A stretch of 63,391 nucleotides of DNA from an uncultured Planctomycetia bacterium (GCA_964629785.1 CAZVRU010000005.1:27225-90615), one strand, 5' to 3'; numbered from the stretch's first letter, positions 338 to 61,635 are shown. The notes: generated from the sequence alone by a model not told the origin. Program-made: numbers and translations.

Positions 338-361
338 TAGCTCATGGCTCATAGCTCATGG
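338..361. repeat. Heptamer tandem array T(A/G)GCTCA x3
   Basis: TAGCTCA TGGCTCA TAGCTCA TGG just after tRNA-Arg. Confidence 0.75.
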
Positions 362-476
362 AAGTTGGTTCAGATATTATAAGAGAATAAGGAACTTTAG
401 AAGAGGCTTGACTGTCTAAGATATACCCGGTACATATCAAGACCGGGCCCTTTCCTGAACCCGGCCGGGGAGAAAT

Positions 477-1700
477 ATGAAACGGAAAACTAAAAAATTA
501 TTGCGGATAGTGTTTACGGGGCTGGTTTTGATCATTTTGCCTTATGTGTTCATGTATCTGTATATAAACGAACGCGGCAAAGATCTGGTCATAGAAAGGC
601 TCAGTAAAAAGCTGAATTCCGAGGTACGGCTGAACAGCCTTTCCTTCAGTTTCCCCCTGCGTCTCAGTATGGTGGGCCTGGAAGCAAAGGGATTGAAGAT
701 AGGGCAGGCAACTGCCGACCTGGGTATTGGCAATCCTTTCTCCAATACTTTGCGTCTGGACAAACTTTATCTTAACAGGGCTATGATCACTATCGACGAT
801 TCCATGCTCAGTTCTTCGTTTTTCGACGGCAATCTGCCTGTTGCCCGGCCGGTGCCGCGGCAGGCCGGACTGATCTCCTCGGGAAAACCGGAAATAAAAG
901 TATTTGTAAAGACTCTGGTGCTGGAAGATTGTGCCTTGTTTCTGCAAAGCCGGAAAGTAAAGCCGGCCCTTGATCTGAAGATAGACGGAATAAACGGTAC
1001 GGTCAGGGATTTTTATTACCCGGTATTTACCAGATTTTCTTTTGATATTATTACCGGTATCGGCATAAATGAGGCAGGACAAAAGGATGTTCTCCAGTTC
1101 AACGGCTGGGTCGATTGGCCGAATAAGGCAATGGACGTATTGGTCAAGGCCAGCGAAGTGAATTATTTCATGTTCGATCCGTATTATCCGCCGTTCTGGA
1201 AAACCAAAAATCTGGAATTAAAAGAAGCATTTATGTCGCTGGATTCGAAACTGGTTGCCGAAAATGACCGTTTGCTTATCGATTATACGATCAGGGTCGA
1301 TAAGGTCAATTTTGTCGACAGCCCTGAAGATCCTGCCCGGATCAGGAATTTCCAGACAGTGCTTTCTCTGTTCACTCATAACGGAAAACCCGAATTGCGC
1401 CTGCGCCATGTGACTACCATGAGCCAGCCAACCTTTAAAGTGACTTTTATCGGCGAAGGATTGCTGGATCAGCTTAAGGCTATCGACGAAGAAGAATCGA
1501 AGGATACCCTTAATTATTATATGACCAAGAGTAAGGACATAGTGGAAAGCGGCGTGGATAAATTCCGTTCCCTGACCATAGATCCGCCGATCAAGGCAGT
1601 GGGCAGTCTGTTCGAAGAATTTTTCAAGAATCTGCAGCGGCTTACCGGAAAAAGTTACGAAAAAGAAGAAATGGCCGAAGACGTGGTTCCGGAGGAATAA
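477..1700 (+). CDS. AsmA/DUF748-like envelope protein with N-terminal membrane anchor
   Basis: 407-aa ORF, GGGGAG SD, basic N-terminus plus one TM helix, then beta-rich body. Family assignment is by resemblance only. Confidence 0.6.
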   Translation: MKRKTKKLLRIVFTGLVLIILPYVFMYLYINERGKDLVIERLSKKLNSEVRLNSLSFSFPLRLSMVGLEAKGLKIGQATADLGIGNPFSNTLRLDKLYLNRAMITIDDSMLSSSFFDGNLPVARPVPRQAGLISSGKPEIKVFVKTLVLEDCALFLQSRKVKPALDLKIDGINGTVRDFYYPVFTRFSFDIITGIGINEAGQKDVLQFNGWVDWPNKAMDVLVKASEVNYFMFDPYYPPFWKTKNLELKEAFMSLDSKLVAENDRLLIDYTIRVDKVNFVDSPEDPARIRNFQTVLSLFTHNGKPELRLRHVTTMSQPTFKVTFIGEGLLDQLKAIDEEESKDTLNYYMTKSKDIVESGVDKFRSLTIDPPIKAVGSLFEEFFKNLQRLTGKSYEKEEMAEDVVPEE

Positions 1701-1925
1701 AGGCAACCGAAGGACGTCCGCTCATTATATTCGCTAAGACGTTCGCTCCCTGCGGTCGCTAAGACGAGGGACGCAACCGCCTTTCGGCGGAAGGAAAAAG
1801 CCCTTCGACTCCCTTGGTTCGACTTCGCTCATCACAGATCAGTCGCTCAGGGTAAGTCAAAAGTAAAAAGGATAAAGGAAAAAGTTAGTTCAAAGATAGT
1901 CCACAGACCACGGTCGACAGCTTGG
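1701..1925. repeat. Intergenic heptamer/palindrome mosaic
   Basis: TAAGACG units around hairpin GCTCCCTGCGGTCGC (1745-1759), CCGCC-TTTC-GGCGG (1778-1791), nested CCCTTCGACT...CGCTCAGGG (1801-1856), then GTCAAAA/GTAAAAA/GGATAAA/GGAAAAA and ATAGTCC/ACAGACC/ACGGTCG units. Confidence 0.85.
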
Positions 1926-2010
1926 CTGGTGGCAGAATAAGCTTTGTTTTTTAAAGCTTTTATGTATAATAAGTAAATGTTCTTTTATATAGTGGAAAAA
2001 ATTTTGGGAC

Positions 2011-2087
2011 GGTGGGTGTAGCTCAGTTGGCAGAGCACTTGACTGTGGCTCAAGATGTCGAGGGTTCAAATCCCTTCACCCACCCCA
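2011..2087 (+). tRNA. tRNA-His(GTG)
   Basis: G-1 plus acceptor GTGGGTG/CACCCAC, C73, anticodon arm CTTGA-ct GTG gc-TCAAG, T-loop GGTTCAAATCC, encoded CCA. Confidence 0.97.
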
Positions 2088-2127
2088 AAATTTTTACATC
2101 CATGATTGCTCCCACCCCAAAATTTTT
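2079..2127 (+). repeat. 17-bp direct repeat of the tRNA-His 3' end
   Basis: CCCACCCCAAAATTTTT at 2079-2095 and 2111-2127, 15 bp apart. Confidence 0.85.
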
Positions 2128-2251
2128 CACCACTGAGTGATCCCCTGCGTAAAAGGAAATTACCCGCCAATACTGTTTATCCGTTTTTCCCGATGACCTG
2201 TAATCCCCTCGTTTTTTGTAGAACCGAAGTATTTAGTACGCAGTTTATTTT

Positions 2252-2303
2252 GCTATAAGCTGTCAGCCCGCCTTGCCGGTGAGGCAGGATGTCAGCCATG
2301 AGC
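2252..2303. repeat. Heptamer array with 22-bp REP-like palindrome
   Basis: CTATAAG CTGTCAG [CCCGCCTTGCCGGTGAGGCAGG 2267-2288] ATGTCAG CCATGAG. Confidence 0.8.
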
Positions 2304-2337
2304 CAGGTTTTGTCCTGCCAGCCTGATTTTACCAGCT

Positions 2338-2353
2338 TGAACCGCCCCGGTTC
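2338..2353 (+). repeat. 16-bp direct repeat, copy 1 (TGAACCGCCCCGGTTC)
   Basis: Exact match to 3379-3394; the pair flanks CDS 2438-3346. Confidence 0.8.
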
Positions 2354-2437
2354 GATCGGGCCCGATTTGTCTGGAGCGGATCGGCAAATGGCAGTATAAT
2401 ATTTTTAATATTTTCGGCATAAAAATCGGGAGGAATT

Positions 2438-3346
2438 ATGGTCCGCTACTTTATTTCTGTATTCCTTGTTATATTTTTAACATTTTTTTCCCTTCCTGCT
2501 TTTTGTCAGACCAACCAATCCGAAACCATAACCTTCACTACGTATTATCCGTCGCCTTTCGGGGTCTATAGACAGCTGCAGACGCAGACTTTGGGTGTCG
2601 GTGATACCAATTATGATTATGTGGTCGACAGTAACGACGTTCCTCCTGCGACCAGCCCCGGCGATGTCTGGATCGCAGGCCATGTCGGTATCGGTACCAA
2701 CAATCCGATCCGCGGGCTTACTGTTGTAGGAAGACAACTCCCCACGGATCCTGTTACAGGTCTTAGCTGTGACGGGGCCATTGGTTTATATCCGGAAGGG
2801 CCGAATGATTCTGCCGGCGTGGTTTTCGCTCAAAGTAAAGCAGACATGGAAAATTGTATAACTAACCGGGATGTGGCGTCTATAGGTATCGGCAATAGAA
2901 AAGGACATTTTGGCCGGGACGGCGTACCCGGCGATCTCAAGATCACTACTCGCAAAGGATATGACCTGCATTTTGTCACGCGTCAGCCAGGCCCTCCCGG
3001 GCCTACGCCCGCGCCAACGGCCATGATCGTAAAGAATAATGGCAATGTCGGTATCGGAAATTTAGATCCTCAGGCCAAACTTCACGTCGACGGTAATATT
3101 AGAGGGCAGTTGCAGTGCAGAGTAGTGCAGGGCCCCTGGAGAAAAGCAGGATCGACCGCCCATTGTGCTTCTGATGAATATGTAATATCTGGTGGCGGCA
3201 GCTGTCGCATATCGGCTAAGCAGCACGGATTTTTGCATGCCAGTTTCCCGGATGGCTTAAGCGGCTGGACAGCTGACTGTTATTCTTATAATTGGGGAAG
3301 TGATATTGATGTAAAAGCCTATGCTATTTGTTGTAAGAAAAATTAG
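2438..3346 (+). CDS. Secreted fibre/adhesin-like protein (TYYPSP N-terminal motif, G-x-VGIG repeats, Cys-rich C-terminal domain)
   Basis: GGGAGG SD, signal peptide ending LPAFC/Q, ITFTTYYPSPFGVY, GHVGIGT and GNVGIGN fibre-type repeats, C-terminal C...C..GGGSC...WTADC...AYAICC module. Confidence 0.75.
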   Translation: MVRYFISVFLVIFLTFFSLPAFCQTNQSETITFTTYYPSPFGVYRQLQTQTLGVGDTNYDYVVDSNDVPPATSPGDVWIAGHVGIGTNNPIRGLTVVGRQLPTDPVTGLSCDGAIGLYPEGPNDSAGVVFAQSKADMENCITNRDVASIGIGNRKGHFGRDGVPGDLKITTRKGYDLHFVTRQPGPPGPTPAPTAMIVKNNGNVGIGNLDPQAKLHVDGNIRGQLQCRVVQGPWRKAGSTAHCASDEYVISGGGSCRISAKQHGFLHASFPDGLSGWTADCYSYNWGSDIDVKAYAICCKKN

Positions 3347-3378
3347 CTTACCTCAATTTTTTTATGATAAAGATACTG

Positions 3379-3417
3379 TGAACCGCCCCGGTTCAAGCTT
3401 GAGGGTCGAACCAGGGC
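3379..3417 (+). repeat. 16-bp direct repeat, copy 2, extended into a hairpin
   Basis: TGAACCGCCCCGGTTC at 3379-3394; arm GCCCCGGTTC (3385-3394) pairs 9/10 with GAACCAGGGC (3408-3417). Confidence 0.75.
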
Positions 3418-3465
3418 AGAGTTTTTGTTAAGCCAGGATATAACTGCAACAAAGAAAGGATACAG

Positions 3466-3714
3466 ATGGCTGATCTGGTCGGTGTTTTAGCAGGCGTTTT
3501 GTGCGCGATATCTTTTTTCCCTCAGGTAATCAAGGTTTACCGGACAAAGCAGACTGCCGATCTGTCGATAGTAACTTTTTCCCTGTTTGCTGCCGGCATC
3601 GTGATGTGGCTGGTGTACGGATATCTCATGCACAGCCTCCCGATCATGCTGGCCAACGGCCTGATGCTCGCCTTTGTTGCGGCAATTGTCTTTGCCAAGA
3701 TCCGCTACCGATAA
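3466..3714 (+). CDS. SemiSWEET/PQ-loop family 3-TM transporter
   Basis: 82 aa, SFFPQVIKVYRTKQTADLS PQ motif, three hydrophobic helices, AAGGA SD. Confidence 0.85.
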   Translation: MADLVGVLAGVLCAISFFPQVIKVYRTKQTADLSIVTFSLFAAGIVMWLVYGYLMHSLPIMLANGLMLAFVAAIVFAKIRYR

Positions 3715-3781
3715 ATCTTGCTTTGCAAGCCGGAAAATCCTGTTATAATTAGATACTGAATTTCATTAAAAGGAGTCGAAA

Positions 3782-5293
3782 ATGAAGGTAATATTAGCAG
3801 GATTCAATGTCGATACCACGGTCTTAAATGAGCTGGAGAAAAGTGTTGGGAAGAGGGAAGACATCACGCCTGAGGTGCTGTCTGCTGCCTATGCCCGTAT
3901 CAGCCGCGATCCGCGGCCGGTCGATGAAATAAGAAAAGATGCCCGCAGTGAAGTTGAACGGTCCCGCAAGTCAAATTCCACGATCATTTTTAAAATGGGT
4001 CACCATTCGGTTGCCGAGCACGCAGTGTTCAATCTCGATGTTATCGGCGTATCCCGTTATGCCATGGAAGAACTGGAGAAGTTCCGCCTTTGTTCCTACA
4101 CGGAAAAATCCCAGCGTTATATTACTCTGGATAAAGATCATGTGATCCCTGCCGAGATCAAAGACACGGATCTGGAGAAGAAGTTCGTGTCCATGATCAA
4201 AGAACAGAACAAAGCCTATTTCGAATTTTTCGAAAAGCTTAAAGAATATGTATTCAAAAAATACTCTTGTCTGGCCGCAGATCCCAAAAATCATAATCTT
4301 CTCGAAGGATGGGCAAAAGAGGATGCCCGTTATATCACAGCCCTGGCTACCGAATCGCAGGCCGGTCAGACCATCAATGCCCGCAACCTGGAACTTTTAC
4401 TGCGGCGTTTCGCGTCTCATCCGCTCGATGAGGTGAGAAAACTGGGCCGGGCCATATATGAGCAGATCCATGAAGTAGCGCCTTCAATAGTCATTTTTCA
4501 TGAAGCCAATGACCGTGACCGGAATACTTATCCTGAATTGCAAAAACTGGCACGGGAATTGATAAAAGGCGCTTCTCCCAAGCCTGCTGCTTCATCCCAG
4601 GAAATACAGTTGGTCGAATATACTGCCGACGGCGATGCCCTGGTAGCGGCAGCCCTGCTGCACAGCGGTTCGGGGCTCACCTATGCCAAATGCAAGGATC
4701 TTATCGGCAATTTTTCCCAGGAAACCAAGGCCAGGATCTTTAAAGCTGCCTGGAAGAATATGCAGTTCTATGACACGATGCTGCGTGAATTCGAGTACGT
4801 CAATCTTACTTTCAATGTCGTGTTGTCGGCGGCCTGCTTCGGTCAGCTGAAACGCCACCGTATGTCCACGATAACTGCCCAGAACTATGATCCTTCTCTG
4901 GGCCTGACTGTTCCCGAATCGATAAAGGAAATAGGCGAAGATAAAAAATTCCTGGAGATCGCTGAAAAGAGCAGCGAGGTCTATGAAGAGATCAATAAGC
5001 GGTTTTCCCTGGCTGCGCCGTATATCCTTACCAATGCCCATCGTAAACGGGTATTGATGAGGCTAAATGCCCGGGAGTTGTACCATGTTTCGCGTCTGCG
5101 GGAAGATGCCCATGCCCAGTGGGATATACAGAATGTTTCCCGGTCGATGATCGATCAGGCCAAAAAGATCATGCCGCTTACCTTTGCTCTGGCCGGCGGC
5201 AAAGACCGCTATAACGATATTTATCAAAATATATTCGGGACATTGCCCAGGGTAACGCAGGTTGAATTACCCCGGGCCCGCACCATTAAATAA
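3782..5293 (+). CDS. thyX: FAD-dependent thymidylate synthase, tandem two-domain form
   Basis: GHHSVAEH, RLCSYTEKSQRY and NARNL in the first half; LKRHRMST and NARELYH...AQWDI in the second half; 503 aa. Confidence 0.85.
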   Translation: MKVILAGFNVDTTVLNELEKSVGKREDITPEVLSAAYARISRDPRPVDEIRKDARSEVERSRKSNSTIIFKMGHHSVAEHAVFNLDVIGVSRYAMEELEKFRLCSYTEKSQRYITLDKDHVIPAEIKDTDLEKKFVSMIKEQNKAYFEFFEKLKEYVFKKYSCLAADPKNHNLLEGWAKEDARYITALATESQAGQTINARNLELLLRRFASHPLDEVRKLGRAIYEQIHEVAPSIVIFHEANDRDRNTYPELQKLARELIKGASPKPAASSQEIQLVEYTADGDALVAAALLHSGSGLTYAKCKDLIGNFSQETKARIFKAAWKNMQFYDTMLREFEYVNLTFNVVLSAACFGQLKRHRMSTITAQNYDPSLGLTVPESIKEIGEDKKFLEIAEKSSEVYEEINKRFSLAAPYILTNAHRKRVLMRLNARELYHVSRLREDAHAQWDIQNVSRSMIDQAKKIMPLTFALAGGKDRYNDIYQNIFGTLPRVTQVELPRARTIK

Positions 5294-5416
5294 CTGCCTG
5301 CCTTTTTTTGCCGGATAAAAATAAGCAAAGCATTTCTTGATTACTCGCGTAGTTTTGCTAAAATTTGTTTAGATCACGGAATCTCTGCGGCAATTTTTTT
5401 TATCTGACGGTAGAGT

Positions 5417-7897: not shown

Positions 7898-8061
7898 TTA
7901 AAAGAGTGACAGTCTGATGATCAAATCCTGCGCCGGTCCGGAAAAGAGTTTTTTTGTGACTATTCGGCGTAAAGAAAAAACGGTTACCGGCAAAGAGGGT
8001 GTTGAATTAAAATAAAAAAAGGAGTATTATTATAAAAAGTTGTCTAAAAGGGGCACGGGGA

Positions 8062-8277: not shown

Positions 8278-8368
8278 TCGCAAAACAGCTTTTTAAAGGC
8301 GGATATCTGAGAAATCGCCGGCTTTCGGAACAGTCTGCAAACGATCTGCCGCGAAAGGAGTATTTATC

Positions 8369-8884: not shown

Positions 8885-8960
8885 GACGTCCGTTTTGTCC
8901 TTCGGCAAGCTCAGGACACGCTAAGACGTTCGCTCCCCGCGGTCGCTAAGACGAAGGAGG
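8881..8960. repeat. Intergenic heptamer/palindrome mosaic
   Basis: GTGAGAC GTCC, GTCCTTCGGCAAGCTCAGGAC, then a 36-bp unit (8919-8954) 35/36 identical to 1732-1767. Confidence 0.85.
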
Positions 8961-8967
8961 GTATAAG

Positions 8968-9937: not shown

Positions 9938-9969
9938 AAATGCCCCCTGCCCGGCAGGGGGCATTTTTT
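9938..9969 (+). terminator. Intrinsic terminator
   Basis: Perfect 13-bp stem AAATGCCCCCTGC-ccg-GCAGGGGGCATTT running into a T tract. Confidence 0.8.
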
Positions 9970-9988
9970 CAACAGACAAGGAGCAGTT

Positions 9989-10222
9989 ATGAAAGATACC
10001 GATTACGAAGGGTTCGACAGTTTCAAGGATAAGTTAACTGAGCTGAAAGGCCGGGAAATAGAGATCGTTCTCGATACCCCATCCGATATCTGCGAGATAA
10101 AAGGCACATTGGTCGATGTGGGCGGTGATTTTGTCGCTTTGACCACTGTCGGTGACCAGCGCCTGAAGATGTACAATGCCCGCTACATAATCAGTTGTTA
10201 TGTGGCCGGCGATACTGACTGA
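9989..10222 (+). CDS. Hypothetical small beta protein (Sm/SH3-like pattern)
   Basis: 77 aa, AAGGAG SD, L.GREIEIVL...IKGTLVDVGGDFVAL pattern. Confidence 0.6.
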   Translation: MKDTDYEGFDSFKDKLTELKGREIEIVLDTPSDICEIKGTLVDVGGDFVALTTVGDQRLKMYNARYIISCYVAGDTD

Positions 10223-12013: not shown

Positions 12014-12798
12014 TGGCTGCAGTCACGATCAAAACACAGTTGAAAAAAGCAGGCCGGGTGGCCGCTGACATTCTGGATAAAGCCGCTGAAATCATCAAAC
12101 CGGGAGTGAGTACCGAAGAGGTCAGCCAACTGCTTGAGGAATACAGTAATTACCTCTATCCCGCTTTCCGCCTTGCCAGTAAAGGATACCATGGGTTTCC
12201 TGCGCCGCTTTGTATCTCGGTCAATGAATACATAATCCACGGCGTTCCTTCCGGACAAATAATAAAGCAGGGGGATCTGGTCAAAGTCGATGTGGTGGTA
12301 GAATATAAAGGGTGGTTCGCCGATACGGCCCGGACTTACGGGGTGGGCACACTGTCCGGGACGGCAATCCGTCTGACAGAGGCTACAGAACGGGCCCTGC
12401 AAGCGGCGATAGATGCTGCCCGGCCGGGTAATACTATCGGGGATATAGGATACGCGGTCCAGCAGTGCGCTGAGCAGGAAGGATTTTCGGTGATGCGTGT
12501 TTATTCCGGACACGGGATAGGAAGGGTCATGCATGATGAGCCGAGCATCCCCAATTTCGGCCGGCCGAAAGAAGGATTGCTTTTGAAACCGGGTATGATC
12601 CTGGCTATCGAACCGATGCTTTTTGCCGGCGCTTCGGATGTCGAAACAGGCCCGGACAATATCTCGATAAAGTCTGTAGACGATTCGCTTACTGCCCATT
12701 TCGAGCATACGGTGGTGGTTACCGGCAGCGGACCGGTGATCATTACTGCATCGGATCGCCGCGGTGGGGAAACAGTAAAAGAGGAGAGAAGACAATGA
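12013..12798 (+). CDS. map: Methionine aminopeptidase type I
   Basis: CISVNEYIIHGVP, GWFADTART, SGHGIG, AIEPM, AHFEHTV; TAATG overlap with the upstream gene. Confidence 0.95.
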   Translation: MAAVTIKTQLKKAGRVAADILDKAAEIIKPGVSTEEVSQLLEEYSNYLYPAFRLASKGYHGFPAPLCISVNEYIIHGVPSGQIIKQGDLVKVDVVVEYKGWFADTARTYGVGTLSGTAIRLTEATERALQAAIDAARPGNTIGDIGYAVQQCAEQEGFSVMRVYSGHGIGRVMHDEPSIPNFGRPKEGLLLKPGMILAIEPMLFAGASDVETGPDNISIKSVDDSLTAHFEHTVVVTGSGPVIITASDRRGGETVKEERRQ

Positions 12799-13064
12799 AT
12801 ATGCCGATGATTCTGGCGATAGCCGGTATTGTTATCGGGATCATGGGGGCGATCTGGGGCATTTGTCTGAGTTTTAAAAGAACCGCCGATCCTTTGCAGC
12901 ACCGGGTGTTAAGACAGTGTGTTTTTATAATGACCGGCAGCGCCGGGATAGCTATGCTTTTATTCTTTTTTCTGCCGATGTCATTTAAATTTTATTTCTG
13001 GCTGCCTTTCCCTTTCGCCTTTCTGCTTACCTTACTGTTGTGGAAACGGAATATAAAAGGATAG
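12795..13064 (+). CDS. Small 3-TM membrane protein
   Basis: ATGA overlap with map, GAGGAG SD, three hydrophobic segments. Confidence 0.6.
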   Translation: MNMPMILAIAGIVIGIMGAIWGICLSFKRTADPLQHRVLRQCVFIMTGSAGIAMLLFFFLPMSFKFYFWLPFPFAFLLTLLLWKRNIKG

Positions 13065-13069: not shown

Positions 13070-13501
13070 TCAGCTGCCATGACCGTTTTCTTTTACCGGA
13101 GAACGGGCCTTCTTTTTTTCTGAGCGTATTTTTTTATCCCGAAGAATCTTTTCTTTGGCCCGTTTAGAACGTTTTCTTTTCTGTCTTTTTATTTTAGCAA
13201 TACGCTTTTCTTCGGCGCTTTTTTTGCCGATAAGCATTCGTTCTATCTTGTCGGTAAGGTTCCGCCGGGCCAGGAAACGGTTCAGCGCCTGAGAACGTTC
13301 TTTCTGGCATTTCACTTCCAGTCCGGTAGGCAGATGTTTCAGATATACGCAGGTAGAGGTCTTGTTCACGTTCTGCCCGCCGTGTCCGCCGGAACGGATA
13401 AAACGTTCGATCAGGTCGTCCTCTTTTATGCCCAGTTGTTCCATCTTTTTTTGCAGGGCTTTCTCTTTTTCGGCGCGCACCCCGTATTTTAAAAAATTCA
13501 T
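13070..13501 (-). CDS. arfB: Alternative ribosome rescue peptidyl-tRNA hydrolase
   Basis: RSGGHGGQNVNK GGQ motif, CQKERSQALNR, long basic C-terminal tail; true start ATG at 13501 with GGGGAG SD (the ORF-track start at 13813 is spurious). Confidence 0.9.
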   Translation of the reverse strand: MNFLKYGVRAEKEKALQKKMEQLGIKEDDLIERFIRSGGHGGQNVNKTSTCVYLKHLPTGLEVKCQKERSQALNRFLARRNLTDKIERMLIGKKSAEEKRIAKIKRQKRKRSKRAKEKILRDKKIRSEKKKARSPVKENGHGS

Positions 13502-13577
13502 GAAAATATCCTCCCCCCATATCATATCACAGAATAGAAAGCTGAAAAATGCCTGCGGCCAGAGGATTTTTCCGGGG

Positions 13578-13606
13578 TTGACGCGGGTAAGGCATAAGAG
13601 TATGAT
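13578..13606 (+). promoter_or_regulatory. Sigma70-type promoter
   Basis: TTGACG-17 bp-TATGAT upstream of CDS 13665, back-to-back with arfB. Confidence 0.6.
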
Positions 13607-13664
13607 TTTAAGTATAGTATTCAGACGATGATCGGGATTCGAGACCCGGGAAGGGAGAGGATAT

Positions 13665-13916
13665 ATGGACGCTGAACAGCAGAAAATAACCGAACTGGCC
13701 GAACAGAACATAAAGATTTCCCGCGCCCTGATGGATATTGCCGAGGCAGTGAAAAAGCTGGATATGGTCATCAGCGTTTTATCGGAAAAAACCGCGGTCA
13801 ATACCTCGATCATCGAAAATATACTGAAAGAAAAACTTCACCTGTCGCAGCCGGAAATAAATGTGTTGCTGGAAGAGGCCCGGCAAAATTACCGGCAACA
13901 GGGACAGACCGGCTGA
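13665..13916 (+). CDS. Hypothetical coiled-coil protein
   Basis: 83 aa, GAGGA SD, heptad-like amphipathic helices. Confidence 0.6.
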   Translation: MDAEQQKITELAEQNIKISRALMDIAEAVKKLDMVISVLSEKTAVNTSIIENILKEKLHLSQPEINVLLEEARQNYRQQGQTG

Positions 13917-15620: not shown

Positions 15621-15870
15621 AATTTAGTCGATAGTCGATGGCCGATAGTCGATAGTAGAAATGAGAAGATGAGAAATGAGTTGGGAGTCAGGAGTTCGGA
15701 GTAGAAAATTTTTACGCGTCCTTCGTCCCTCATCCCAGCGCAGTGGTCGTTTCACGTCTTACGTTTTGGCTAAGAGCTAACAGCCTGCCTCGCGGCAAGG
15801 CGGGCCAAGAGCTAAGAGCCGGAGCGCGCCGTAGGCGGCTTTCGGACTCTCTGCTCTCTACTTTTGGAAA
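15621..15870. repeat. Large intergenic heptamer/palindrome mosaic
   Basis: TAGTCGA x5 degenerate (15625-15659), ATGAG-type units, GGAGT-type units, CGTCCTT/CGTCCCT, CTAAGAG units split by CCTGCCTCGCGGCAAGGCGGG (15784-15804), CGCC-GTA-GGCG (15827-15837), CTCTCTG/CTCTCTA. Confidence 0.9.
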
Positions 15871-24563: not shown

Positions 24564-24921
24564 AAAAATAATGATCGTCGACGACGAGCCCTATATCCTG
24601 AAAATGATCGCGGTACGCCTGAAAAGCAACGGCTACGAAGTCGTTACTGCGGGGGACGGGGCCCAATGTCTGTCCCGAGTGGAAAAAGAGAATCCCGACG
24701 CTGTTCTGCTCGATCTGATCATGCCCGGTTTGAGCGGGTTTGAGGTCTGCCGGAAGCTGAAAGAGAACGAAAAGACAAGGCATATCCCGGTGATCATGCT
24801 TACGGCCCTGGCCCAGAAAAGCGATATTGCCCAGGGCCTGGAAGCAGGAGCCTGTTTTTTTGTCACTAAACCGTATAATCCCGAAGATCTTCTGGAAAAG
24901 ATCCAAAAAGCCATAGAATGA
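24556..24921 (+). CDS. Single-domain response regulator (CheY-like receiver)
   Basis: IVDDE, LLDLIMPGLSG, IMLTA, VTKPY; overlaps the kinase stop. Confidence 0.93.
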   Translation: MPKKIMIVDDEPYILKMIAVRLKSNGYEVVTAGDGAQCLSRVEKENPDAVLLDLIMPGLSGFEVCRKLKENEKTRHIPVIMLTALAQKSDIAQGLEAGACFFVTKPYNPEDLLEKIQKAIE

Positions 24922-28136: not shown

Positions 28137-28171
28137 AAAGGAAAATCCTGAAATAAGAAAGGAGACAGTTC

Positions 28172-28900
28172 ATGCGTAAAAATTTTACCCTGGTAGAGAT
28201 CGTGATCTCTCTGGCAGTGGTGCTTATTCTGGCGATGTCCGGGATAGTCGGGTACCGGCAGTTGCTGGATAACGCGCGTTAGCGTGTCTGCAAGACCAAT
28301 CTTAATGCTTTGACCGCGGCAGTCGAGATCTATGCCCTGGAGAACGATGTGGTGCCGGCGACTCTGGGCGAATTAGAGATCGAACATCTGCAGCGGGGCT
28401 ATGCCCGGGCTATAAACAGCCGTGACCTGGTTACCCGCGCTGCCTATGTTTTTGTTTCTTTTGACTGGTCTTGCCGCAAAGCGGCAGGTATTATGCCGGC
28501 CTATGCCTATAATTTTCTCAGCCCGGAAGAATTGGGAAAATACGGGGTCAAGATCGACATGTTCATCTGCCCGGCTGACGAAAACGGTCCGCCTTCCTAC
28601 GGCATCAATAATTCTATTGCCGGGAAAAGATGGCGGGATATTCCCGAAGACACGCTGATCGTGGGCGACTGCGATAAAACTGTTTTTTCCGGTGAACAAG
28701 ACCTGTCCTTACGTCATATCCGCAAAATAGGGTTGGAACATATTGCCCAGGGGATCAATAAAGGCAAATCAAACCAACAGATAACAGGCAGTGCTGCTAT
28801 AACAGGAAATACGGGCCCGGATCAGGAGTTAAAAGATAACCGCGGGAATCGTTGGGGGTTGTTGAGAAGATTGTTTGAGCTATTTTTTAAGGACAAATAA
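28172..28900 (+). pseudogene. Type IV pilin-like paralogue B with one in-frame TAG (pseudogene, readthrough or sequence error)
   Basis: AAAGGAG SD, ATG 28172 MRKN-FTLVEIVISLAVVLIL; TAG at codon 37 (28280-28282); the same frame continues to TAA 28900 and aligns with paralogue A on both sides of the stop. Confidence 0.8.
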
Positions 28901-31389: not shown

Positions 31390-31515
31390 GGGTGTAGGGG
31401 TTAGCGGTCAGGGGTTAGGGCCGCACTTCGTGCGGAAGGGAAAATATATTAACTCTTTACTTGTAACTTGTAATTTTTTTCTGTAAACCATCGACTATAG
31501 ACTATCGACCATAGA
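31390..31515. repeat. Heptamer mosaic between pgk and tpiA
   Basis: GGGTGTA GGGGTTA GCGGTCA GGGGTTA, hairpin CCGCAC-TTC-GTGCGG (31421-31435), TACTTGT AACTTGT, CCATCGA CTATAGA CTATCGA CCATAGA (31488-31515). Confidence 0.88.
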
Positions 31516-31550
31516 CGTATAACGAAGATACATTAAGAAGGAGAGAACAG

Positions 31551-32345: not shown

Positions 32346-32711
32346 ATGTATACTTTTGTGCTGGCTATTCATATCATCGTGGTGATCGGGTTACTTGCCC
32401 TTATTCTCATTCAGAGAGGGAGAAGCGGCGGTCTGGTCGAGGCCCTGGGAGGAGTGGAATCGATATTCGGAACAAAGACCAGCGGCCTTTTCGTGAAACT
32501 GACCGTAACGCTTGCTATTCTTTTCTTTGTCACCTCTATCTCTCTTGCCTATCTTTCCAAGCAGAGGAGTAAGTCTCTTTTCGAGACATTACCTGTCAGG
32601 GAAGAGGCAGGAGAAAACAAAGAAGAGACTGCTTTGGCTGTTCAGGAAGAAGCACCTGCGCAGGCAGAGCCGGCGGCCACTGCTCCCCAGGCTGATGAGA
32701 ACAGTAAGTAA
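32346..32711 (+). CDS. secG: Preprotein translocase subunit SecG
   Basis: Two TM with ILIQRGRSGGL...FG linker, follows tpiA. Confidence 0.9.
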   Translation: MYTFVLAIHIIVVIGLLALILIQRGRSGGLVEALGGVESIFGTKTSGLFVKLTVTLAILFFVTSISLAYLSKQRSKSLFETLPVREEAGENKEETALAVQEEAPAQAEPAATAPQADENSK

Positions 32712-35399: not shown

Positions 35400-35612
35400 G
35401 ATAAATGTCAGACGTGAGACGTCCGTCCTGCCCGCCATTTTCAATGGCGAGGCGGACTAAGACGAAGGACGATACCGCTTTGCGGAGTTATAAATTATGA
35501 ATTAGAGTATTGTCAATGGTCGATAGCCGATAGTAAGAGACATGCCATTTAAATTATAATCGCCATCGACAATAGACCATAGACTGTCGACTGTAAACTG
35601 CCGAAGGCAAAA
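35400..35612. repeat. Heptamer mosaic between oppB and oppC
   Basis: GTCAGAC GTGAGAC, CCTGCC[CGCCATT-TTC-AATGGCG]AGGCGG (35427-35455), TAAGACG AAGGACG, CCGC-TTT-GCGG, TGGTCGA TAGCCGA, CCATCGA/CCATAGA/CTGTCGA run, TGCC-GAA-GGCA (35599-35609). Confidence 0.88.
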
Positions 35613-36676: not shown

Positions 36677-36829
36677 TCGTATATAGTTTACCCCACATTT
36701 CCCTGTGGGTAATAACGGATACTGCGTGCGGAAGCGCGCCGAGGATAAAATATAAGAAAAATAAAAGGACGCGAGGATCAAGTATCTAACATCTTTCTCT
36801 CTACTCTCTACTTGCTACTCGCTACTTTT
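36674..36829. repeat. Heptamer mosaic between oppC and oppD
   Basis: CCCACA-TTTCCC-TGTGGG hairpin, then CTCTCTA CTCTCTA CTTGCTA CTCGCTA CTTTT (36797-36829). Confidence 0.8.
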
Positions 36830-51346: not shown

Positions 51347-51365
51347 AAAAGTAGCGAGTAGAGAG
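51347..51365. repeat. Short heptamer array
   Basis: AAAAGTAG CGAGTAG AGAG; the reverse complement closely matches the array at 36797-36829. Confidence 0.65.
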
Positions 51366-51444
51366 AGGGAGCAATATTTCATAATCAGGCTCCCTTCGGA
51401 TATAATTTAATTATTTTTCGATCTTATCAAAAGGAGGTTTTCGT

Positions 51445-52433: not shown

Positions 52434-53102
52434 ATGAGCATCGGTGTGGTACTGGTCTGTGCCGGCAGGGGGGTGCGGCTTAAACAGGGAAAAGCCAAGG
52501 CATTTGTAAAAGTGGCCGGACAGCCGCTTTACCGCTGGAGCCTTGATCTTTTTTCCCGGATACGCTCTATAAACCACATTGTCGTGGTCGCCGACAAAGC
52601 CTATCATCCTCTGATCCGGCGCTGTAAATGCGGAAAACCGCTGAGCCTGAGCCAGGGCGGCAGCCGCCGCCAGGATTCCGTGTATAACGGCGTCAGAGCT
52701 TTACCGGAAAGTATTGACAAAGTGATAGTCCATGACGGGGCCCGGCCGCTTTTGAACGAGAAGACAGTAAAAAAACTGATAAAAGCTCTTTCCGGTTATG
52801 ATTCGGTGACCTGCGGTCTGCCGGTAAAAGAAGCATTGAAAAAAGAGAAGCGCGGTTTTATCCGGGAAACAATGCGGCGTGAGCATGTCTGGTCTATCCA
52901 GACTCCCCAGGCCTTTGACCGCAAAAAGCTGTTGCAAGCTTACGCTGAATTCCGCCGGAATACAGTCTATGATGAGACCCAGCTTATGGAATTGGCAGGA
53001 GTAAAAACAAAACTTATCGAAGGCGATCCCCTTAATATCAAGATCACTTATCCTGACGATCTTAAAATGGCTGAGCTTCTGCTTTGCAGAAGCAGGGGGT
53101 AG
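52434..53102 (+). CDS. ispD: 2-C-methyl-D-erythritol 4-phosphate cytidylyltransferase
   Basis: AGRG.RL, RQDSVYNG, VHDGARP, IQTPQ, NIKITYPDDL. Confidence 0.93.
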   Translation: MSIGVVLVCAGRGVRLKQGKAKAFVKVAGQPLYRWSLDLFSRIRSINHIVVVADKAYHPLIRRCKCGKPLSLSQGGSRRQDSVYNGVRALPESIDKVIVHDGARPLLNEKTVKKLIKALSGYDSVTCGLPVKEALKKEKRGFIRETMRREHVWSIQTPQAFDRKKLLQAYAEFRRNTVYDETQLMELAGVKTKLIEGDPLNIKITYPDDLKMAELLLCRSRG

Positions 53103-53285
53103 CGTTTAGGGGCCGGGGGTCAGGCCCGTCTTGCCGGCGAGGCAGGGTTGCGACTGCGTCGCAGAAAAGGATTAATATGGATAAATTTTGAGAGAGATGG
53201 TTAATAACAATATAAAGCGTAATATGTATCTGGAATTTTTTTTTAGCGGGGCTTAACCCTAAACCCTATCCGCTATCCGCTATAA
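53093..53285. repeat. Heptamer mosaic between ispD and ispF
   Basis: G-rich arm TAGCGTT TAGGGGC, 22-bp palindrome 53125-53146, GCGAC-TGC-GTCGC (53150-53162), AT-rich core, C-rich arm AACCCTA AACCCTA TCCGCTA TCCGCTA (53255-53282). Confidence 0.88.
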
Positions 53286-53298
53286 CCTGTATTTGATT

Positions 53299-53781
53299 AT
53301 GGACGACTACAGAATAGGAACCGGTTTCGACGTACACAGATTCGCAGAGAAAAAAGAAGGAGATCTGATTTTGGGCGGCATAGTGATCGACAGCCCTTAT
53401 TCTCTGGAAGCGGTATCTGACGGAGATGTGGTGCTTCATGCTGTCTGCGACGCGCTATGCGGCGCTGCCGGCCTGGGAGATATAGGGGACATGTTCCCGC
53501 CTGAGGACAAGGCCAGCGCCGGAATATCGAGCCTGCAAATCGTTAAGGCTGTTCAGGAAAAAGTAAAGGATAAATACGTTATGGTCAATATGGATATCAC
53601 GATCATAGCCGAAAAGCCGCGTCTTTCCGGGCAGAAAGAGGCGATGACCGGTTCTCTGCAAAATATTTTTTCTGCGAATGAGGTCAATATAAAGATAAAA
53701 TCGAAAGAAGGGCTGAACATACTGGGCGGCAGTGAGGCTATCGCCTGTATGGCCACAGTGCTTTTAAAAAAGAGGGGATAG
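53299..53781 (+). CDS. ispF: 2-C-methyl-D-erythritol 2,4-cyclodiphosphate synthase
   Basis: RIGTGFDVH, SDGDVVLHAVCDALCGAAGLGDIG, NIK.KS.E. Confidence 0.95.
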   Translation: MDDYRIGTGFDVHRFAEKKEGDLILGGIVIDSPYSLEAVSDGDVVLHAVCDALCGAAGLGDIGDMFPPEDKASAGISSLQIVKAVQEKVKDKYVMVNMDITIIAEKPRLSGQKEAMTGSLQNIFSANEVNIKIKSKEGLNILGGSEAIACMATVLLKKRG

Positions 53782-53822
53782 CGTTTAGCGATTAGCGTTT
53801 AGGGTTGCCTGCAATGCAGGCA
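53779..53822. repeat. Heptamer array after ispF
   Basis: TAGCGTT TAGCGAT TAGCGTT TAGGGTT (53779-53806), then TGCCTGC-AAT-GCAGGCA. Confidence 0.88.
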
Positions 53823-53922
53823 AAAAATGTTCTGAATACTTGTTGCTTTTAGTAATTAGAAATTTATTTCCTGTCGCCATGTCACCCTCTGACTTGTCGA
53901 CTATACGAAAAAAGGAAGGGAT

Positions 53923-56785: not shown

Positions 56786-56877
56786 TCCGGTATAAAGACG
56801 ATCAGGCATCCCGGAGAAGGCAGACAATAAGCTGCCGGACCGGTCAGTCAGGGCGAAGATAAAGGCGGTGAACAAAG

Positions 56878-59176: not shown

Positions 59177-59927
59177 TACTCATTGTCACATCAATTCTCT
59201 GGCTGACGACCGGATCGATGAGCTTCGCGCCATCAGTCCGGAAGATAAAATTTTTGTCGATGTAAGTATCGACCCTCATTCTTCGGAAAGATCCCTGGCT
59301 CTGGCCGGCTCGATGCCCTGTGTTTATTCCTGTCTGGGCTTTCATCCTTTCAGTATTGATCAATATCAGGAAAAAACAGCGGAAAAATATGCCGGATATA
59401 TCCGCAATAACAGTAAGGTGATCGGTATCGGTGAAGTAGGCCTTGACTGCACGGCATCGTTTGCCATGGAAGATCAGGTGAAGATACTGGAAAAGTTCAT
59501 CGATCTGGCCGGGCAGAACCAACTGCCCCTGGCGATCCATAACCGTCTAAATTCTTTTTTGATCTTCGAGGTGCTGGACCGGTTTATGAAGACTTATGAT
59601 AAGGTAGTGTTCCATTGTTTTTCCCAGGACAGTGAATTCCTGCGGCGGATAATCGACAAGAACGGTATGGTATCTTTTTCTCTGAACATCCTGCGCCGCA
59701 AAAAAAAGATCGTCGATGCCCTGCAAGAGATACCGCTGGATAATCTTATCCTGGAGACCGATTCTCCTTATATGAGGATCGAGGGACAGCCTTCGCATCC
59801 CCTGGATATCGAAAAGGTATATGAGTTTGTGTCCCGGGAAAAAGACCTTGAACGAGCGGCACTGGAAAAGAAGATAAGGGAAAACGTCAGCCGGATATTC
59901 AGGATACAGGCAGAGGACAGGAAGTAG
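59166..59927 (+). CDS. tatD: TatD family nuclease
   Basis: DTHCH, GFHP, IGEVGLD, IHNR, FHCFS, LETDSPY. Confidence 0.93.
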   Translation: MLIDTHCHINSLADDRIDELRAISPEDKIFVDVSIDPHSSERSLALAGSMPCVYSCLGFHPFSIDQYQEKTAEKYAGYIRNNSKVIGIGEVGLDCTASFAMEDQVKILEKFIDLAGQNQLPLAIHNRLNSFLIFEVLDRFMKTYDKVVFHCFSQDSEFLRRIIDKNGMVSFSLNILRRKKKIVDALQEIPLDNLILETDSPYMRIEGQPSHPLDIEKVYEFVSREKDLERAALEKKIRENVSRIFRIQAEDRK

Positions 59928-60290
59928 AGGGTAGCCCTTCGACTTCGCTCAGGACAAGCAAGTAGAGAGTAGAGGGTAGAGAGTAGAGGGTAGAGGGTAG
60001 AGAGTGCCGCCTGCGGCACAGATCGAAGGACGAGGGATGACCGCTTCGCTAAGACGAGGGATGAGAAAAAATCGCAAATTGCAACCTGCCTCGACGGCAA
60101 GGCGGGAATCAGCATTGCAAAATGAGATATGAGAAGAGGAGAGATGAGAAATGAGTTTGGAGAAAGAAGAGTATTCTCTTTCAATTTATAACTCATGATT
60201 CATAATTTAAGTATTGACTATCGGCCATAGACCATCCCGATGCTGCGTTCGGGACGAGTAGACTATCGACCATGTATAGATATCGACTGA
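59920..60290. repeat. Composite heptamer/palindrome element upstream of mtnA
   Basis: CCCTTCGACTTCGCTCAGG, GTAGAG(A/G) x6 (59962-60003), GCC-TGC-GGC, GAAGGAC/GAGGGAT units, 22-bp palindrome 60085-60106, ATGAGA units, CATAATT units, CTATCG/CCATAGA units. Confidence 0.92.
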
Positions 60291-60312
60291 GAGTTAAAGA
60301 GAGAAATAAACT

Positions 60313-61365
60313 ATGCGAGCGATAAAGTTCAGAAATAACAGGCTGTTTTATCTGGATCAGACTTGTTTGCCGGTCAGAGAGGTATGGCAGGAGTGCCGCT
60401 CTCTGTCGGATGCGGTAGAGGCGATCAGACAACTTAAAGTGCGGGGCGCGCCGATGATCGGTGTGTTTGCCGCCTATTCTTTATATATCGCGGTTCGCGA
60501 TCGCCGGGACGAGTCGCCGGCTTCTCTTTTGAAGTATTTCGATAAAGCCTGTACTGCTTTGATCAAAAGCCGGCCTACGGCAGTAAATCTGGCCTGGGCT
60601 GTGGAAAGGGTTCGCGAAGCAGCAAAATCCTGCCGTAAGGAAAAAGTAAAAAAAGTGATCTCTACGGTTATCAGCGAGGCCAAGGCGATCGATCATCAGG
60701 ATGTAAAGCTTTGCGCCGCTATCGGTAAATATGGGCTAAAGCTTATCCGTTCCGGCGATGTTCTGCTGACCCACTGCAATGCCGGCCTTCTGGCCACTGC
60801 CGGTAACGGCACGGCTTTAGCGGTGATCTATGAGGCGGCCAGAAAGTTTAAAAATATCAGGGTCTATGCCGACGAGACAAGGCCGCTGCTGCAGGGAGCC
60901 CGTCTGACCTGCTGGGAACTTATGAAGAACAAAGTCGGGGTCACGCTTATCTGCGATAACATGGCTGCCGATCTCATGCGCCGCGGTCTGATCGATAAAA
61001 TAATCGTGGGCGCGGACCGGATCACGGCTCAGGGTGACGTAGCCAATAAGATCGGGACCTACGGTCTGGCAGTTAATGCTTTTTATCATAAAGTGCCTTT
61101 TTATGTGGCAGCCCCTTTTTCCACCTTTGATCTGACTATCGATAAGGGGGAAGATATACCTATCGAACAGCGCAGTGCCGGTGAAGTGCGCCGGATACTG
61201 GGAAAGCTTGCTGTTGCTCCCAGGGAAGTTCCGGTATATAATCCGGCTTTTGATGTGACGCCGCATAAGCTGATCACGGCTATTATTACCGACCGGGGCA
61301 TTATCAGGCCGCCGTTCAGTAAGAATATCAAAAGAATATTTTCGAATAAAAAAAGTGATATTTGA
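60313..61365 (+). CDS. mtnA: S-methyl-5-thioribose-1-phosphate isomerase
   Basis: VRGAP.IG, SRPTAVNL, THCNAG.LAT, ETRP.LQGARLT, ANKIGTY, NPAFDVTP. Confidence 0.95.
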   Translation: MRAIKFRNNRLFYLDQTCLPVREVWQECRSLSDAVEAIRQLKVRGAPMIGVFAAYSLYIAVRDRRDESPASLLKYFDKACTALIKSRPTAVNLAWAVERVREAAKSCRKEKVKKVISTVISEAKAIDHQDVKLCAAIGKYGLKLIRSGDVLLTHCNAGLLATAGNGTALAVIYEAARKFKNIRVYADETRPLLQGARLTCWELMKNKVGVTLICDNMAADLMRRGLIDKIIVGADRITAQGDVANKIGTYGLAVNAFYHKVPFYVAAPFSTFDLTIDKGEDIPIEQRSAGEVRRILGKLAVAPREVPVYNPAFDVTPHKLITAIITDRGIIRPPFSKNIKRIFSNKKSDI

Positions 61366-61368
61366 TGA

Positions 61369-61635
61369 GGAAGTAGCGGGTAGCCCTTCGACAGGCTCAG
61401 AACAAGCGGGTAGAGAGACCCGCCTGCGGCGCAGAAGTAAAAAGAAAAAAGGCAAAAGGCACTTGGGAAATTGCAAATTGTAAATTGTAACCTGCCTCGA
61501 CGGCAAGGCGGGAATTAGCATTGCAAAATTAAGATATAAGAAATGAGAGTATTCTCTTTTCAATTCATGACGCATAATTCGCAATTCATAATTTAAGTAT
61601 TGGCTATCGACCATCGACTATAGATTATAGACAAT
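61369..61635. repeat. Composite heptamer/palindrome element downstream of mtnA (homologous to 59920-60290)
   Basis: CCCTTCGACAGGCTCAGAAC, GCC-TGC-GGC, AAAAGG units, AAATTG units, 22-bp palindrome 61491-61512, CATAATT units, CTATCGA CCATCGA CTATAGA units. Confidence 0.92.

Follow-up and report, generated by a model that had tools for sequence, protein, structure and literature searches.

The intergenic DNA of a 63.4-kb stretch (48% G+C) from an uncultured bacterium (CAZVRU010000005.1:27225-90615), hereafter called the window and always taken at its full length, holds mosaics of degenerate 7-nt arrays interleaved with small discrete elements, among which a quasi-palindrome of about 22 nt, named H1, is the best defined. 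The best named relatives of the MtnA product encoded there belong to Candidatus Omnitrophota, the nearest being only 63% identical, and the mosaics are a known type of repeat found here in a phylum where it had not been described before. We consider it fairly probable that they result from three separate processes acting on the non-coding DNA of this Omnitrophota lineage: change of heptamer arrays by whole units, entry of short non-autonomous elements, and copying of whole cassettes between spacers.

Heptamer arrays in the intergenic DNA

Periodicity was assessed with a sliding 14-position frame in which each base was compared with the base 7 nt ahead, at a strict threshold of at least 12 matches and a looser one of at least 11; the null consisted of 200 dinucleotide-preserving shuffles of the intergenic pieces, non-coding DNA making up about 12% of the window. 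The strict threshold gave 11 period-7 runs, 10 of them intergenic (0.03 expected) and one in a coding low-complexity stretch, and not a single run in the window for periods 4-6 and 8-11. At the looser threshold, 18 of 20 period-7 runs were intergenic, as against 0.28 expected and a shuffle maximum of 2, and other periods showed no comparable excess (0-2 observed, about 0.3 expected). Tandem Repeats Finder (TRF) independently recovered the same heptamer arrays. In four stretches counted as intergenic (24573-24920, 28171-28281, 32346-32711 and 9988-10220) small genes are present: a response-regulator receiver-like open reading frame (ORF), the N-terminus of a pilin-like protein, secG and one more small ORF. 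Less than 12% of the window is thus truly non-coding, and the figures given here underestimate the enrichment of period 7.

An earlier examination of this DNA, referred to here as the sequence-only reading, had proposed a window-wide family of heptamer repeats in 13 listed spacers, built from a limited set of words recurring on either strand. The counts above bear out the first point; all 13 spacers hold arrays, modules common to other spacers, or both, and the listed words, present on either strand, reach densities in non-coding DNA that are 2- to more than 100-fold higher. Enrichment was 10-fold for GTAGAGR, 15-fold for GARGGAYG, 11-fold for AATTATG, 6-fold for AAATTGY and 4-fold for ATGAGAR; TAAGACG had 7 intergenic and 0 coding copies, and the TAGTCGA and TAGCGTT families were about 2-fold enriched.

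A wider survey covered 80 labelled mtnA-anchored loci among the matches listed, from diverse distant phyla (1.25 Mb), which also served as the control set. Period-7 runs (72) outnumbered those of any other period (5, 26, 9, 39 and 20 runs for periods 5, 6, 8, 9 and 10, respectively) and fell mainly in Acidobacteriota and Planctomycetota, where they usually form inverted pairs. Dense arrays of this kind were seen in loci L041, L077, L044, L021, L036 and L051 (Acidobacteriota) and L031 and L039 (Planctomycetota), where a forward run is followed by a short loop and a reverse-complement run, with a unit specific to each locus (e.g. L077 5536-5559/5576-5599 and L041 8477-8546/8616-8792).

Architecture of the mosaics

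Consecutive unit types keep one 7-nt phase, for instance in the tract 3' of radC, which suggests that mutated units were amplified locally. Contigs L132 and L169, 99.1% identical, have just two indels between them over 4.6 kb, each of one 7-bp unit and each in an array beside H1. Likewise, the two cassettes flanking mtnA in the window, which are collinear over about 300 nt with 76% identity in aligned columns, differ by array indels of 35 nt (5 units) and 28 nt (4 units), as well as by a 24-nt hairpin inserted within a TCGACYA array; both retain a 31-nt block that contains a TTGRCT motif. Arrays thus vary by whole units, as slippage would give, and transposition is not needed to account for their change.

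The arrays are oriented with respect to genes. Units bearing TAG or TAA (GTAGAGR, TAGTCGA, TAGCGTT, TAGGGGT, TAAGACG) lie directly 3' of stop codons, and their reverse complements (CTCTCTA, TCGACTA, AACCCTA) just upstream of the next start codon. The stop codons of ispD, ispF and tatD are the TAG of the first array unit. Since repeats reach into gene ends, arrays may, judging from the sequence, have replaced C-terminal codons. The ends of ispD and ispF (53080-53109 and 53759-53788) are 80% alike over the last 20 or so coding nucleotides and the stop; the tatD stop lies inside the cassette start AGGAAGTAGMGGGTAGCCC (59919-59943), and the same sequence begins 1 nt after the mtnA stop (61368-61392).

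Dispersed composite modules of 25-55 nt recur with 83-97% identity in unlinked spacers. In the two modules at 1732 and 8919, which are 97% identical, the insert TTCGCTCCCYGCGGT stands between two copies of CGCTAAGACG. Short palindromes had been described as interleaved with the heptamers, which is correct for part of the inserts: small hairpins at 31421, 53805 and 60004 are stable (z-scores of -3.3 to -4.0 for some inserts). H1 itself folds weakly (z about -1), and the GTAG-headed insert of 28-29 nt, GTAGCCCTTCGAC...AAGC (59931 and 61380), forms no hairpin (z +1.5). GTAG is present in modules other than H1 at 59931, 59997, 61380 and 61410.

H1, a short element dispersed among unrelated contigs

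H1 is a quasi-palindrome of 22 nt (range 21-23) with the form CCTGCCTC-N1-4-GGCAAGRCGGG. Of its five copies in the window, two clearly keep the phase of the heptamer tract around them, two, paralogous to each other, have AAATTGY units on their flanks, and the fifth is placed at the edge of a tract; all are singletons, none forms an inverted doublet, and one direct tandem doublet was seen elsewhere, in contig L114. Allowing up to 2 mismatches, H1 was absent from the 1.25 Mb of control loci and from the nearest relatives of the window. A scan of metagenome contigs found it in at least 120 stretches, in unrelated contexts and in both orientations; the H1 figures that follow refer to the matches listed. 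Host contigs have almost no DNA in common and range in G+C from 0.29 to 0.69. Long open frames cover 84% of the loci and contain 44% of the copies, so that H1 is under-represented there. A purine precedes it (position -1) in 80% of cases, and a pyrimidine follows it (position +1) in 88%.

In many contigs H1 stands in phase within a heptamer array whose unit varies by locus (TCAACCA, AATTACA, CAAGATA, GAGATGN, CAGCTGT). Direct repeats at lag 7 (at least 5/7 matches) flank 13.4% of non-ORF copies and 2.4% of random non-ORF positions (Fisher p = 5e-5), and flanking repeats at other lags are not enriched around H1. Flanking repeats of 7 nt are limited to 9-18% of copies, and pre-existing arrays account for them.

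The mobility of H1 is best seen in L139, a multi-copy host contig assigned to Candidatus Nomurabacteria/Paceibacterota, of the candidate phyla radiation (CPR), through a 100%-identical RNase R. Compared with L207 and L208 (86-92% nucleotide identity), the H1 copy at 4279-4300 of the L139 reverse complement is an exact 22-bp difference; the site reads ...TTTATAAA[H1]CTTTAAAG..., with no target duplication. This presence/absence polymorphism between close relatives supports the proposal of a mobile non-autonomous unit. The idea that heptamer scaffolds serve as landing pads agrees with the position of the window copies inside or at the edge of period-7 tracts, with the lag-7 excess, and with the 24-nt hairpin inside an array flanking mtnA. 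A footprint model, by which the arrays would arise from 7-bp duplications left by repeated insertion and excision of H1, was rejected: the empty site has no duplication and more than 80% of H1 copies lack flanking 7-nt repeats.

Among 129 hairpins with an H1-type loop, 124 had an identical stem and the other 5 were not compensatory; as stem variants with compensatory change were not found, covariation offers nothing for or against. Viral contigs yielded three H1 matches, all chance-like in GC-rich coding DNA, and phages were rejected as its vector. L160 is a second contig with an array-embedded H1; the protein examined from it (DUF1566) was uninformative for placement. A second hairpin family, CATTCCCGCG(N2-5)CGGGAATC, was seen in the Omnitrophota relative L205 (1290-1370, 7940 and 11118) and in CPR contigs (L137, L139, L106), and was absent from the 1.25 Mb of control loci.

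Orthologous spacers in relatives

Gene order is kept in three contigs of the closest relatives, and their orthologous spacers are shorter than those of the window. The ispD-ispF spacer measures 190 nt in the window and 49 nt in L205 (no data for L202); ispF-cysS 141 nt in the window, 122 nt in L202 and 3 nt in L205; tatD-mtnA 385 nt in the window and 169 nt in L202, the two genes not being adjacent in L205; and mtnA-thiL 298, 100 and 121 nt, respectively. L202 and L203 also carry period-7 mosaics, with common words (TAGTCGA/TGGTCTA, TAGCGNN), the hairpin GCCGCCTGCGGC and TTCGAC/GCTCAG modules, and with the plan of the window: a forward array after the stop codon and a reversed array before the start codon. 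Arrays at orthologous spacers cannot be aligned with those of the window, and L205 uses a different hairpin, GTCATTCCCGCGAAAGCGGGAATC. Five other Omnitrophota loci showed no period-7 runs. The trait is thus lineage-specific and subject to fast turnover; the spacers are not static, in agreement with what the sequence-only reading had expected of a mobile system.

Search for a mobilising enzyme

Searches with Pfam and NCBIfam, covering nearly all of the 52 called protein-coding ORFs, identified no transposase-like gene in the window; five ORFs, outside that scan, were identified by synteny with L202 and L205 alone. Likewise, tblastn over the whole window with a REP-associated tyrosine transposase (RAYT; REP, repetitive extragenic palindrome) as query found no Y1 transposase. 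That no mobilising gene adjoins the mosaics, as had been stated, thus holds for the window.

RAYT-like genes were met elsewhere. In L205, a RAYT-like Y1 transposase gene (12020-13055, PF01797, 287 aa) lies between thiL and tsaE with the same 43-nt hairpin, CTTAAGTTTACAAAACAGTTCCGAACTGTTTTGTAAACTTAAG, on both sides, a classic REP-RAYT layout unrelated to H1. Homologues occur in two AT-rich contigs bearing H1 (L086:3230-4060 and L137:70-600), surrounded by pairs resembling REP doublets (REPINs), ATCTAGGCCGGACCTAGAT in L086 and TACGAAGGCAAGGCCTTCGTA in L137. A REP of the L086 type is also found in a spacer (about 3190-3230 of the reverse complement) of L139, the Nomurabacteria contig, and this spacer has gained several mini-elements relative to L207. 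RAYT was rejected as the cognate enzyme of H1, the RAYT genes of L086, L137 and L205 being flanked by other hairpins.

A proposed layered origin and its alternatives

In the reading that we favor, heptanucleotide arrays resembling the short tandemly repeated repetitive (STRR) sequences of cyanobacteria would arise, then lengthen, shorten and diversify by whole units. The whole-unit change is observed, and slippage during replication would be its simplest cause; successive unit types in one 7-nt phase are then to be expected, since variant units would be amplified locally. Non-autonomous elements of 20-30 nt, some of them GC-rich palindromes, would enter these tracts without target duplication. 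H1 is the best case: its discreteness and lack of target duplication are seen in the CPR genome, and its preference for short-period arrays in the flank statistics. It may be mobilized in trans by an HUH/Y1 enzyme (RAYT or IS200/IS605-like) recognizing hairpins or single-stranded DNA and encoded elsewhere. Recombination would copy whole cassettes between spacers, as the two collinear cassettes flanking mtnA show. As a net effect, spacers in strings of housekeeping genes would grow from the 3-170 nt of relatives to the 140-385 nt of the window, and effects on mRNA, for instance 3' hairpins that hinder decay, would at most accompany this as by-products. Two elements of the sequence-only reading are modified accordingly. 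The mosaics had been taken for one element system, and this does not hold, as modules occur independently, their orders vary and relatives carry other hairpin families. The enzyme acting in trans keeps the status of a conjecture, the RAYT-like genes of relatives and of H1 contigs having their own, different REP hairpins.

Several observations weigh against the layered origin. Slippage accounts neither for the period of 7 itself nor for the orientation rule, by which TAG units follow stops and their reverse complements precede starts. Vocabulary overlaps with that of relatives at about 62% protein identity, which may point to selection rather than neutral turnover. The clean empty site comes from the CPR, another phylum than that of the window organism, and lies in a short tandem array with a period of 9 nt, not 7. 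Identical proteins were found only in the same sample as the window (SRR2187629), and as there are no strain variants, mobility in the window genome is judged from the comparison of paralogues only. Some of the metagenome matches to H1 must be due to chance. An enzyme mobilizing H1 was not found in the window, the RAYT homologues met have different REPs, and such homologues are no more frequent at H1 loci (2 of the 120 listed) than among the controls (2 of 80).

Nor do the three layers account for the identity of H1 across phyla. It is conceivable, albeit doubtful, that H1 is a promiscuous 22-bp mobile palindrome which crosses phyla of ultra-small bacteria (Omnitrophota and CPR/Patescibacteria), is inserted enzymatically without target duplication and prefers short-period arrays; the second family, CATTCCCGCG..CGGGAATC, has the same kind of cross-phylum distribution. 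If this were true, heptamer arrays would be what a new minimal class of transposition physically targets, perhaps in slipped or single-stranded form.

Another possible explanation can be based on selection for signals that act in cis, as RNA or DNA. An unstructured, TAG-rich tract with a stable hairpin would form a 3' untranslated module, acting as a decay barrier or as a buffer stopping ribosomes in all three frames, and the reverse-complement tract ahead of the start codon a 5' untranslated or promoter module. A plan consisting of a stop codon, a TAG-type array, a GC hairpin and an A-rich stretch does recur at pgk, ispD, ispF, tatD and mtnA, and L202 has the same plan, including inverted array pairs in its ispF-cysS spacer. 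TAG outnumbers CTA by 35:9 within the first 60 nt 3' of stop codons, the first array unit supplies three stop codons, some hairpins are very stable and the TTGRCT block is conserved in both mtnA cassettes. However, whole spacers fold no better than their shuffles (z -0.55, +0.29 and +0.39), by which long RNA stem-loops were ruled out. Terminator-like and promoter-like sites in the spacers show no excess over shuffles, no mosaic hairpin is listed among the former, and the sequence downstream of these hairpins is A-rich, not T-rich, and forms no T-tails; canonical promoters and terminators were thus rejected as the content of the spacers. No Rfam family matched, also with E values of up to 1; H1 is found in either orientation, and orthologous spacers are not conserved in sequence. 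A three-frame-stop model, in which stop-bearing heptamers block all frames, fits the local 35:9 trend only: among 175 arrays from many genomes, the asymmetry is weak (25 sense versus 20 antisense), and TAG stop codons are not significantly enriched (p = 0.12). Selected signals of this kind appear an unlikely origin for the mosaics.

Two further explanations would reduce the mosaics to a single process. The strict version of the sequence-only reading, a coherent composite non-autonomous transposon of about 300 nt in which scaffold and inserts spread as a unit, draws on the collinearity of the tatD-mtnA and mtnA-thiL spacers and on a Logan contig that breaks exactly at the repeated part. This collinearity is limited to one adjacent pair, the other 11 spacers varying in module order and subset; terminal inverted repeats and target duplications are not present, and since the pair surrounds a single gene, it is accounted for equally well by local duplication or by gene conversion. 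We regard such a transposon as quite improbable. Still less credit can be given to the view that the arrays are merely simple repeats prone to slippage, and the inserts local sequence or palindromes due to chance, with no mobile element involved. Whole-unit indels are indeed the sole dynamics directly seen in arrays, and an excess of heptamer simple sequence repeats (SSRs) in many bacteria is attributed to polymerase slippage in PMC4692102. Slippage alone is nevertheless contradicted by the exact 22-bp H1 indel at an otherwise conserved site, and it does not provide for identical 21-22-nt H1 copies in five unlinked spacers of the window and in many unrelated contigs, including another phylum, nor for composite modules of 36-55 nt with 93-97% identity in unlinked spacers.

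Features and gene context of the window

Genes lie nearly all on the plus strand. NCBIfam confirmed gap-pgk-tpiA-secG, oppABCD(F), radA, a PIN/TRAM gene, ispD, ispF, cysS, tatD, mtnA, thiL and tsaE, in agreement with the gene pairs named earlier (pgk/tpiA, oppB/oppC, oppC/oppD, ispD/ispF, ispF/cysS, tatD/mtnA and mtnA/thiL). Positions 60087-61511 recur without any difference in L001, a contig from an independent assembly of sample SRR2187629, the only other assembly that contains this sequence. This Logan contig ends within both H1 copies flanking mtnA, an indication that the repeats fragment short-read assemblies. The features of the spacers are collected in Table 1.

Table 1. Repeat features and tRNA genes of the window (positions counted from its first nucleotide)
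Position	Strand	Feature	Support or comparison
337..362	+	heptamer array TAGCTCA/TGGCTCA, about 3.5 units, directly 3' of tRNA-Arg	TRF, period test
1732..1766	+	composite module CGCTAAGACG-TTCGCTCCCTGCGGT-CGCTAAGACG	97% identical to 8919-8953
1801..1887	+	TTCGAC/GCTCAG-type modules, then A-rich period-7 array (1854-1887)
2252..2307		GCTGTCA/ATGAGCC period-7 tract with H1 (2267-2288, minus) in phase within	cross-junction match 0.86, offset 7
8899..8953	+	module CCTTCGGCAAGCTCAGGACA and second copy of TAAGACG composite module
15624..15704	+	unbroken period-7 tract 3' of radC stop: TAGTCGA x4, TAGTAGA, AATGAGA x3, GGAGTYN x3
15716..15763	-	GAGGGAC/GAAGGAC/TAAGACG units, reverse-complement copies
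15769..15819	+	GCTAAGA period-7 tract with H1 (15784-15804, plus) in phase within	match 0.71 at offset 7, 0.86 at offset 14
15847..15861	-	CTCTCTR units (reverse complement of GTAGAGR), upstream of CPA2 antiporter gene
31395..31435	+	TAGGGGT/TAGCGGT array 3' of pgk stop, then hairpin CCGCAC-TTC-GTGCGG (31421-31435)
31452..31516	-	ACTTGTA array and TCGACYATAGAC array (reverse complement, TAGTCGA family), directly upstream of tpiA
35409..35485	+	5' part of oppB-oppC spacer: GAGACG units, nested hairpin (35425-35457), TAAGACGAAGGACG, hairpin CCGCTTTGCGG
35512..35600		TGGTCGA/TAGCCGA array (35512-35533, plus) and TCGACNATAGAC array (35563-35600, minus), upstream of oppC
36795..36828	-	CTCTCTA/CTCGCTA array (reverse complement of GTAGAGR/GTAGCGA), upstream of oppD
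51351..51371	+	GTAGCGA/GTAGAGA units 3' of radA stop
53099..53163		GTAGCGT/TTAGGGG tract starting at ispD stop codon, H1 (53125-53146, minus), hairpin TGCGAC-TGC-GTCGCA
53255..53288	-	AACCCTA/TCCGCTA array upstream of ispF	inverted relative to array 3' of ispF: 40 nt, 78% complementary
53776..53823	+	TAGCGTT array, first TAG being the ispF stop codon, then hairpin TTGCCTGC-AAT-GCAGGCAA
53894..53907	-	short TCGACTA unit upstream of cysS
59921..60312	+	tatD-mtnA cassette. 5' part: GTAGAGG units (supplying tatD stop), GTAG-tagged non-hairpin insert (59931-59959), GTAGAGR x6.4 (59957-60007). Middle: hairpin (60004-60019), GAAGGAC/TAAGACG units (60023-60065), AAATYGC units with H1 (60085-60106). 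3' part: ATGAGAN array (60122-60155), CATAATT units, TCGACYA arrays (60216-60287) split by 24-nt hairpin (60236-60259)
61366..61663	+	mtnA-thiL cassette. 5' part: GTAGCGG units, insert (61380-61407), hairpin (about 61419-61431), AAAAGGC array. 3' part: AAATTGY array (61468-61490), H1 (61491-61512), CATAATT/CGCAATT units (61573-61593), TCGACYA array (61602-61632)	collinear paralogue of tatD-mtnA cassette
2267, 15784, 53125, 60085, 61491	-, +, -, +, +	H1 copies (n=5)
73-149, 255-331, 2012-2087		three tRNAs

Some features stand apart from the mosaics. A 503-aa ORF (3782-5293) has two matched stretches to Thy1 (ThyX) and about twice the usual length, and may be a duplicated or fused thymidylate synthase. 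The sole clear minus-strand gene (13070-13813, 247 aa) encodes a protein in which an RF-1 (peptide chain release factor) domain is confined to the C-terminal half. Identical copies of a 16-nt hairpin, TGAACCGCCCCGGTTC (2338-2353 and 3379-3394), lie on both sides of an unannotated 302-aa ORF (2438-3346). A perfect palindrome with a 13-bp stem, AAATGCCCCCTGC-ccg-GCAGGGGGCATTT (9938-9966), followed by TTTT, is probably a genuine intrinsic terminator unrelated to the mosaics.

Comparison with known repeat systems

The STRR arrays of heterocyst-forming cyanobacteria are made of tandem 7-nt units, with several families per genome (units CCCCAGT, TTGGTCA and CAACAGT), and occupy non-coding DNA, also within operons, in either orientation. 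The window resembles them in its tandem 7-nt units, many non-coding loci, both orientations and several unit families. Its units are anchored by NTAG or NTAA (GTAGAGR, TAGTCGA, TAGCGTT, TAAGACG), its host belongs to Omnitrophota and is not a heterocystous cyanobacterium, and its arrays follow a marked orientation rule relative to gene ends, three respects in which it differs. Heptamer STRR arrays go back to Mazel et al. (1990) on Calothrix PCC 7601, as cited in PMC4692102. In that paper, Rehm et al. (2015) describe G-rich heptamers, GGGAATC in Xanthomonas and GGGGAYT in Nostoc PCC 7120, an excess of heptamer SSRs in many bacteria, convergent pairs and length variation between close Xanthomonas species, and polymerase slippage is given as the cause of heptamer SSRs (Mrazek 2007). 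The period-7-specific intergenic excess, the frequent inverted pairs and the retention of repeat type while length varies are likenesses to these heptamers; they consist of a single G-quadruplex-prone unit, whereas the window has many units not prone to quadruplexes, with small elements interleaved.

Elhai et al. are said to have described, in 2008, the small dispersed repeats (SDRs) of Nostocaceae, very small mobile elements that reportedly measure 21-27 nt, are dispersed, encode no enzyme, lie within other repeats including heptamer arrays, and are missing at orthologous sites of relatives. H1 is similar in its size of 21-23 nt, in its many near-identical dispersed copies without a coding gene (5 in the window, at least 120 metagenome stretches), in its presence or absence at orthologous sites as an exact 22 bp (L139 versus L207/L208, CPR genome), and in its occurrence inside short-period tandem repeats (13.4% of the non-ORF copies listed versus 2.4% at control positions). 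It differs by its hosts, Omnitrophota and CPR, and is likened to SDRs by description, not by the sequence of SDR1-8. The SDR mini-elements (Elhai 2008) are cited in PMC3116915 and PMC5861425, the latter of which states that no SDR-like repeats were found outside Nostocaceae.

REPs tagged by GTAG or CGTC are treated in PMC3733652, and REP/REPIN-RAYT systems in PMC3116915 and PMC2817692. The window mosaics share with REPs and bacterial interspersed mosaic elements (BIMEs) palindromes that are small, GC-rich and extragenic and lie for the most part downstream of genes and in gaps between co-directional ones, stems with G-T pairs, mosaic combination and the reported insertion into other palindromes; several window hairpins or inserts begin with or follow GTAG. 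H1 lies mostly outside open frames and is a quasi-palindrome of modest stability (z about -1), its copy number being counted over 63 kb only. It differs from REPs in having no GTAG or CGTC tag, its flanks showing only a purine at -1 and a pyrimidine at +1. It differs from REPINs in occurring as singletons in the window, not as inverted doublets, in that a cognate RAYT was not found in the window, and in its patchy distribution across phyla, whereas REPINs are thought to be vertically inherited. MITEs (miniature transposable elements with inverted repeats) are likewise non-autonomous, intergenic and multi-copy, but are longer than 50-100 nt and carry inverted repeats at their ends as well as target-site duplications, whereas H1 has 22 nt and no duplication. 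Intrinsic terminators differ from the mosaic hairpins, which lack a T-run and are A-rich downstream.

A full-text search returned nothing relevant on intergenic repeats in Omnitrophota or on REP/RAYT in CPR, and no paper containing the H1 sequence. To our knowledge, heptamer arrays have stood without explanation since 1990, and mobile elements of some 20 nt since 2008. An invariant 22-mer common to several phyla, together with a clean empty site, offers a handle for an enzyme search through phylogenetic profiling. On the practical side, these repeats break short-read assemblies, inflate operon spacers and supply stop codons, and thereby affect the annotation of metagenome-assembled genomes. 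The mosaics work like STRR arrays with SDRs and like REPs and BIMEs, but appear to belong to neither, because sequence, host, tag, doublet or cognate RAYT fail to correspond; and since the same combination of array and mini-element is found in Omnitrophota and CPR, it is not a cyanobacterial oddity.

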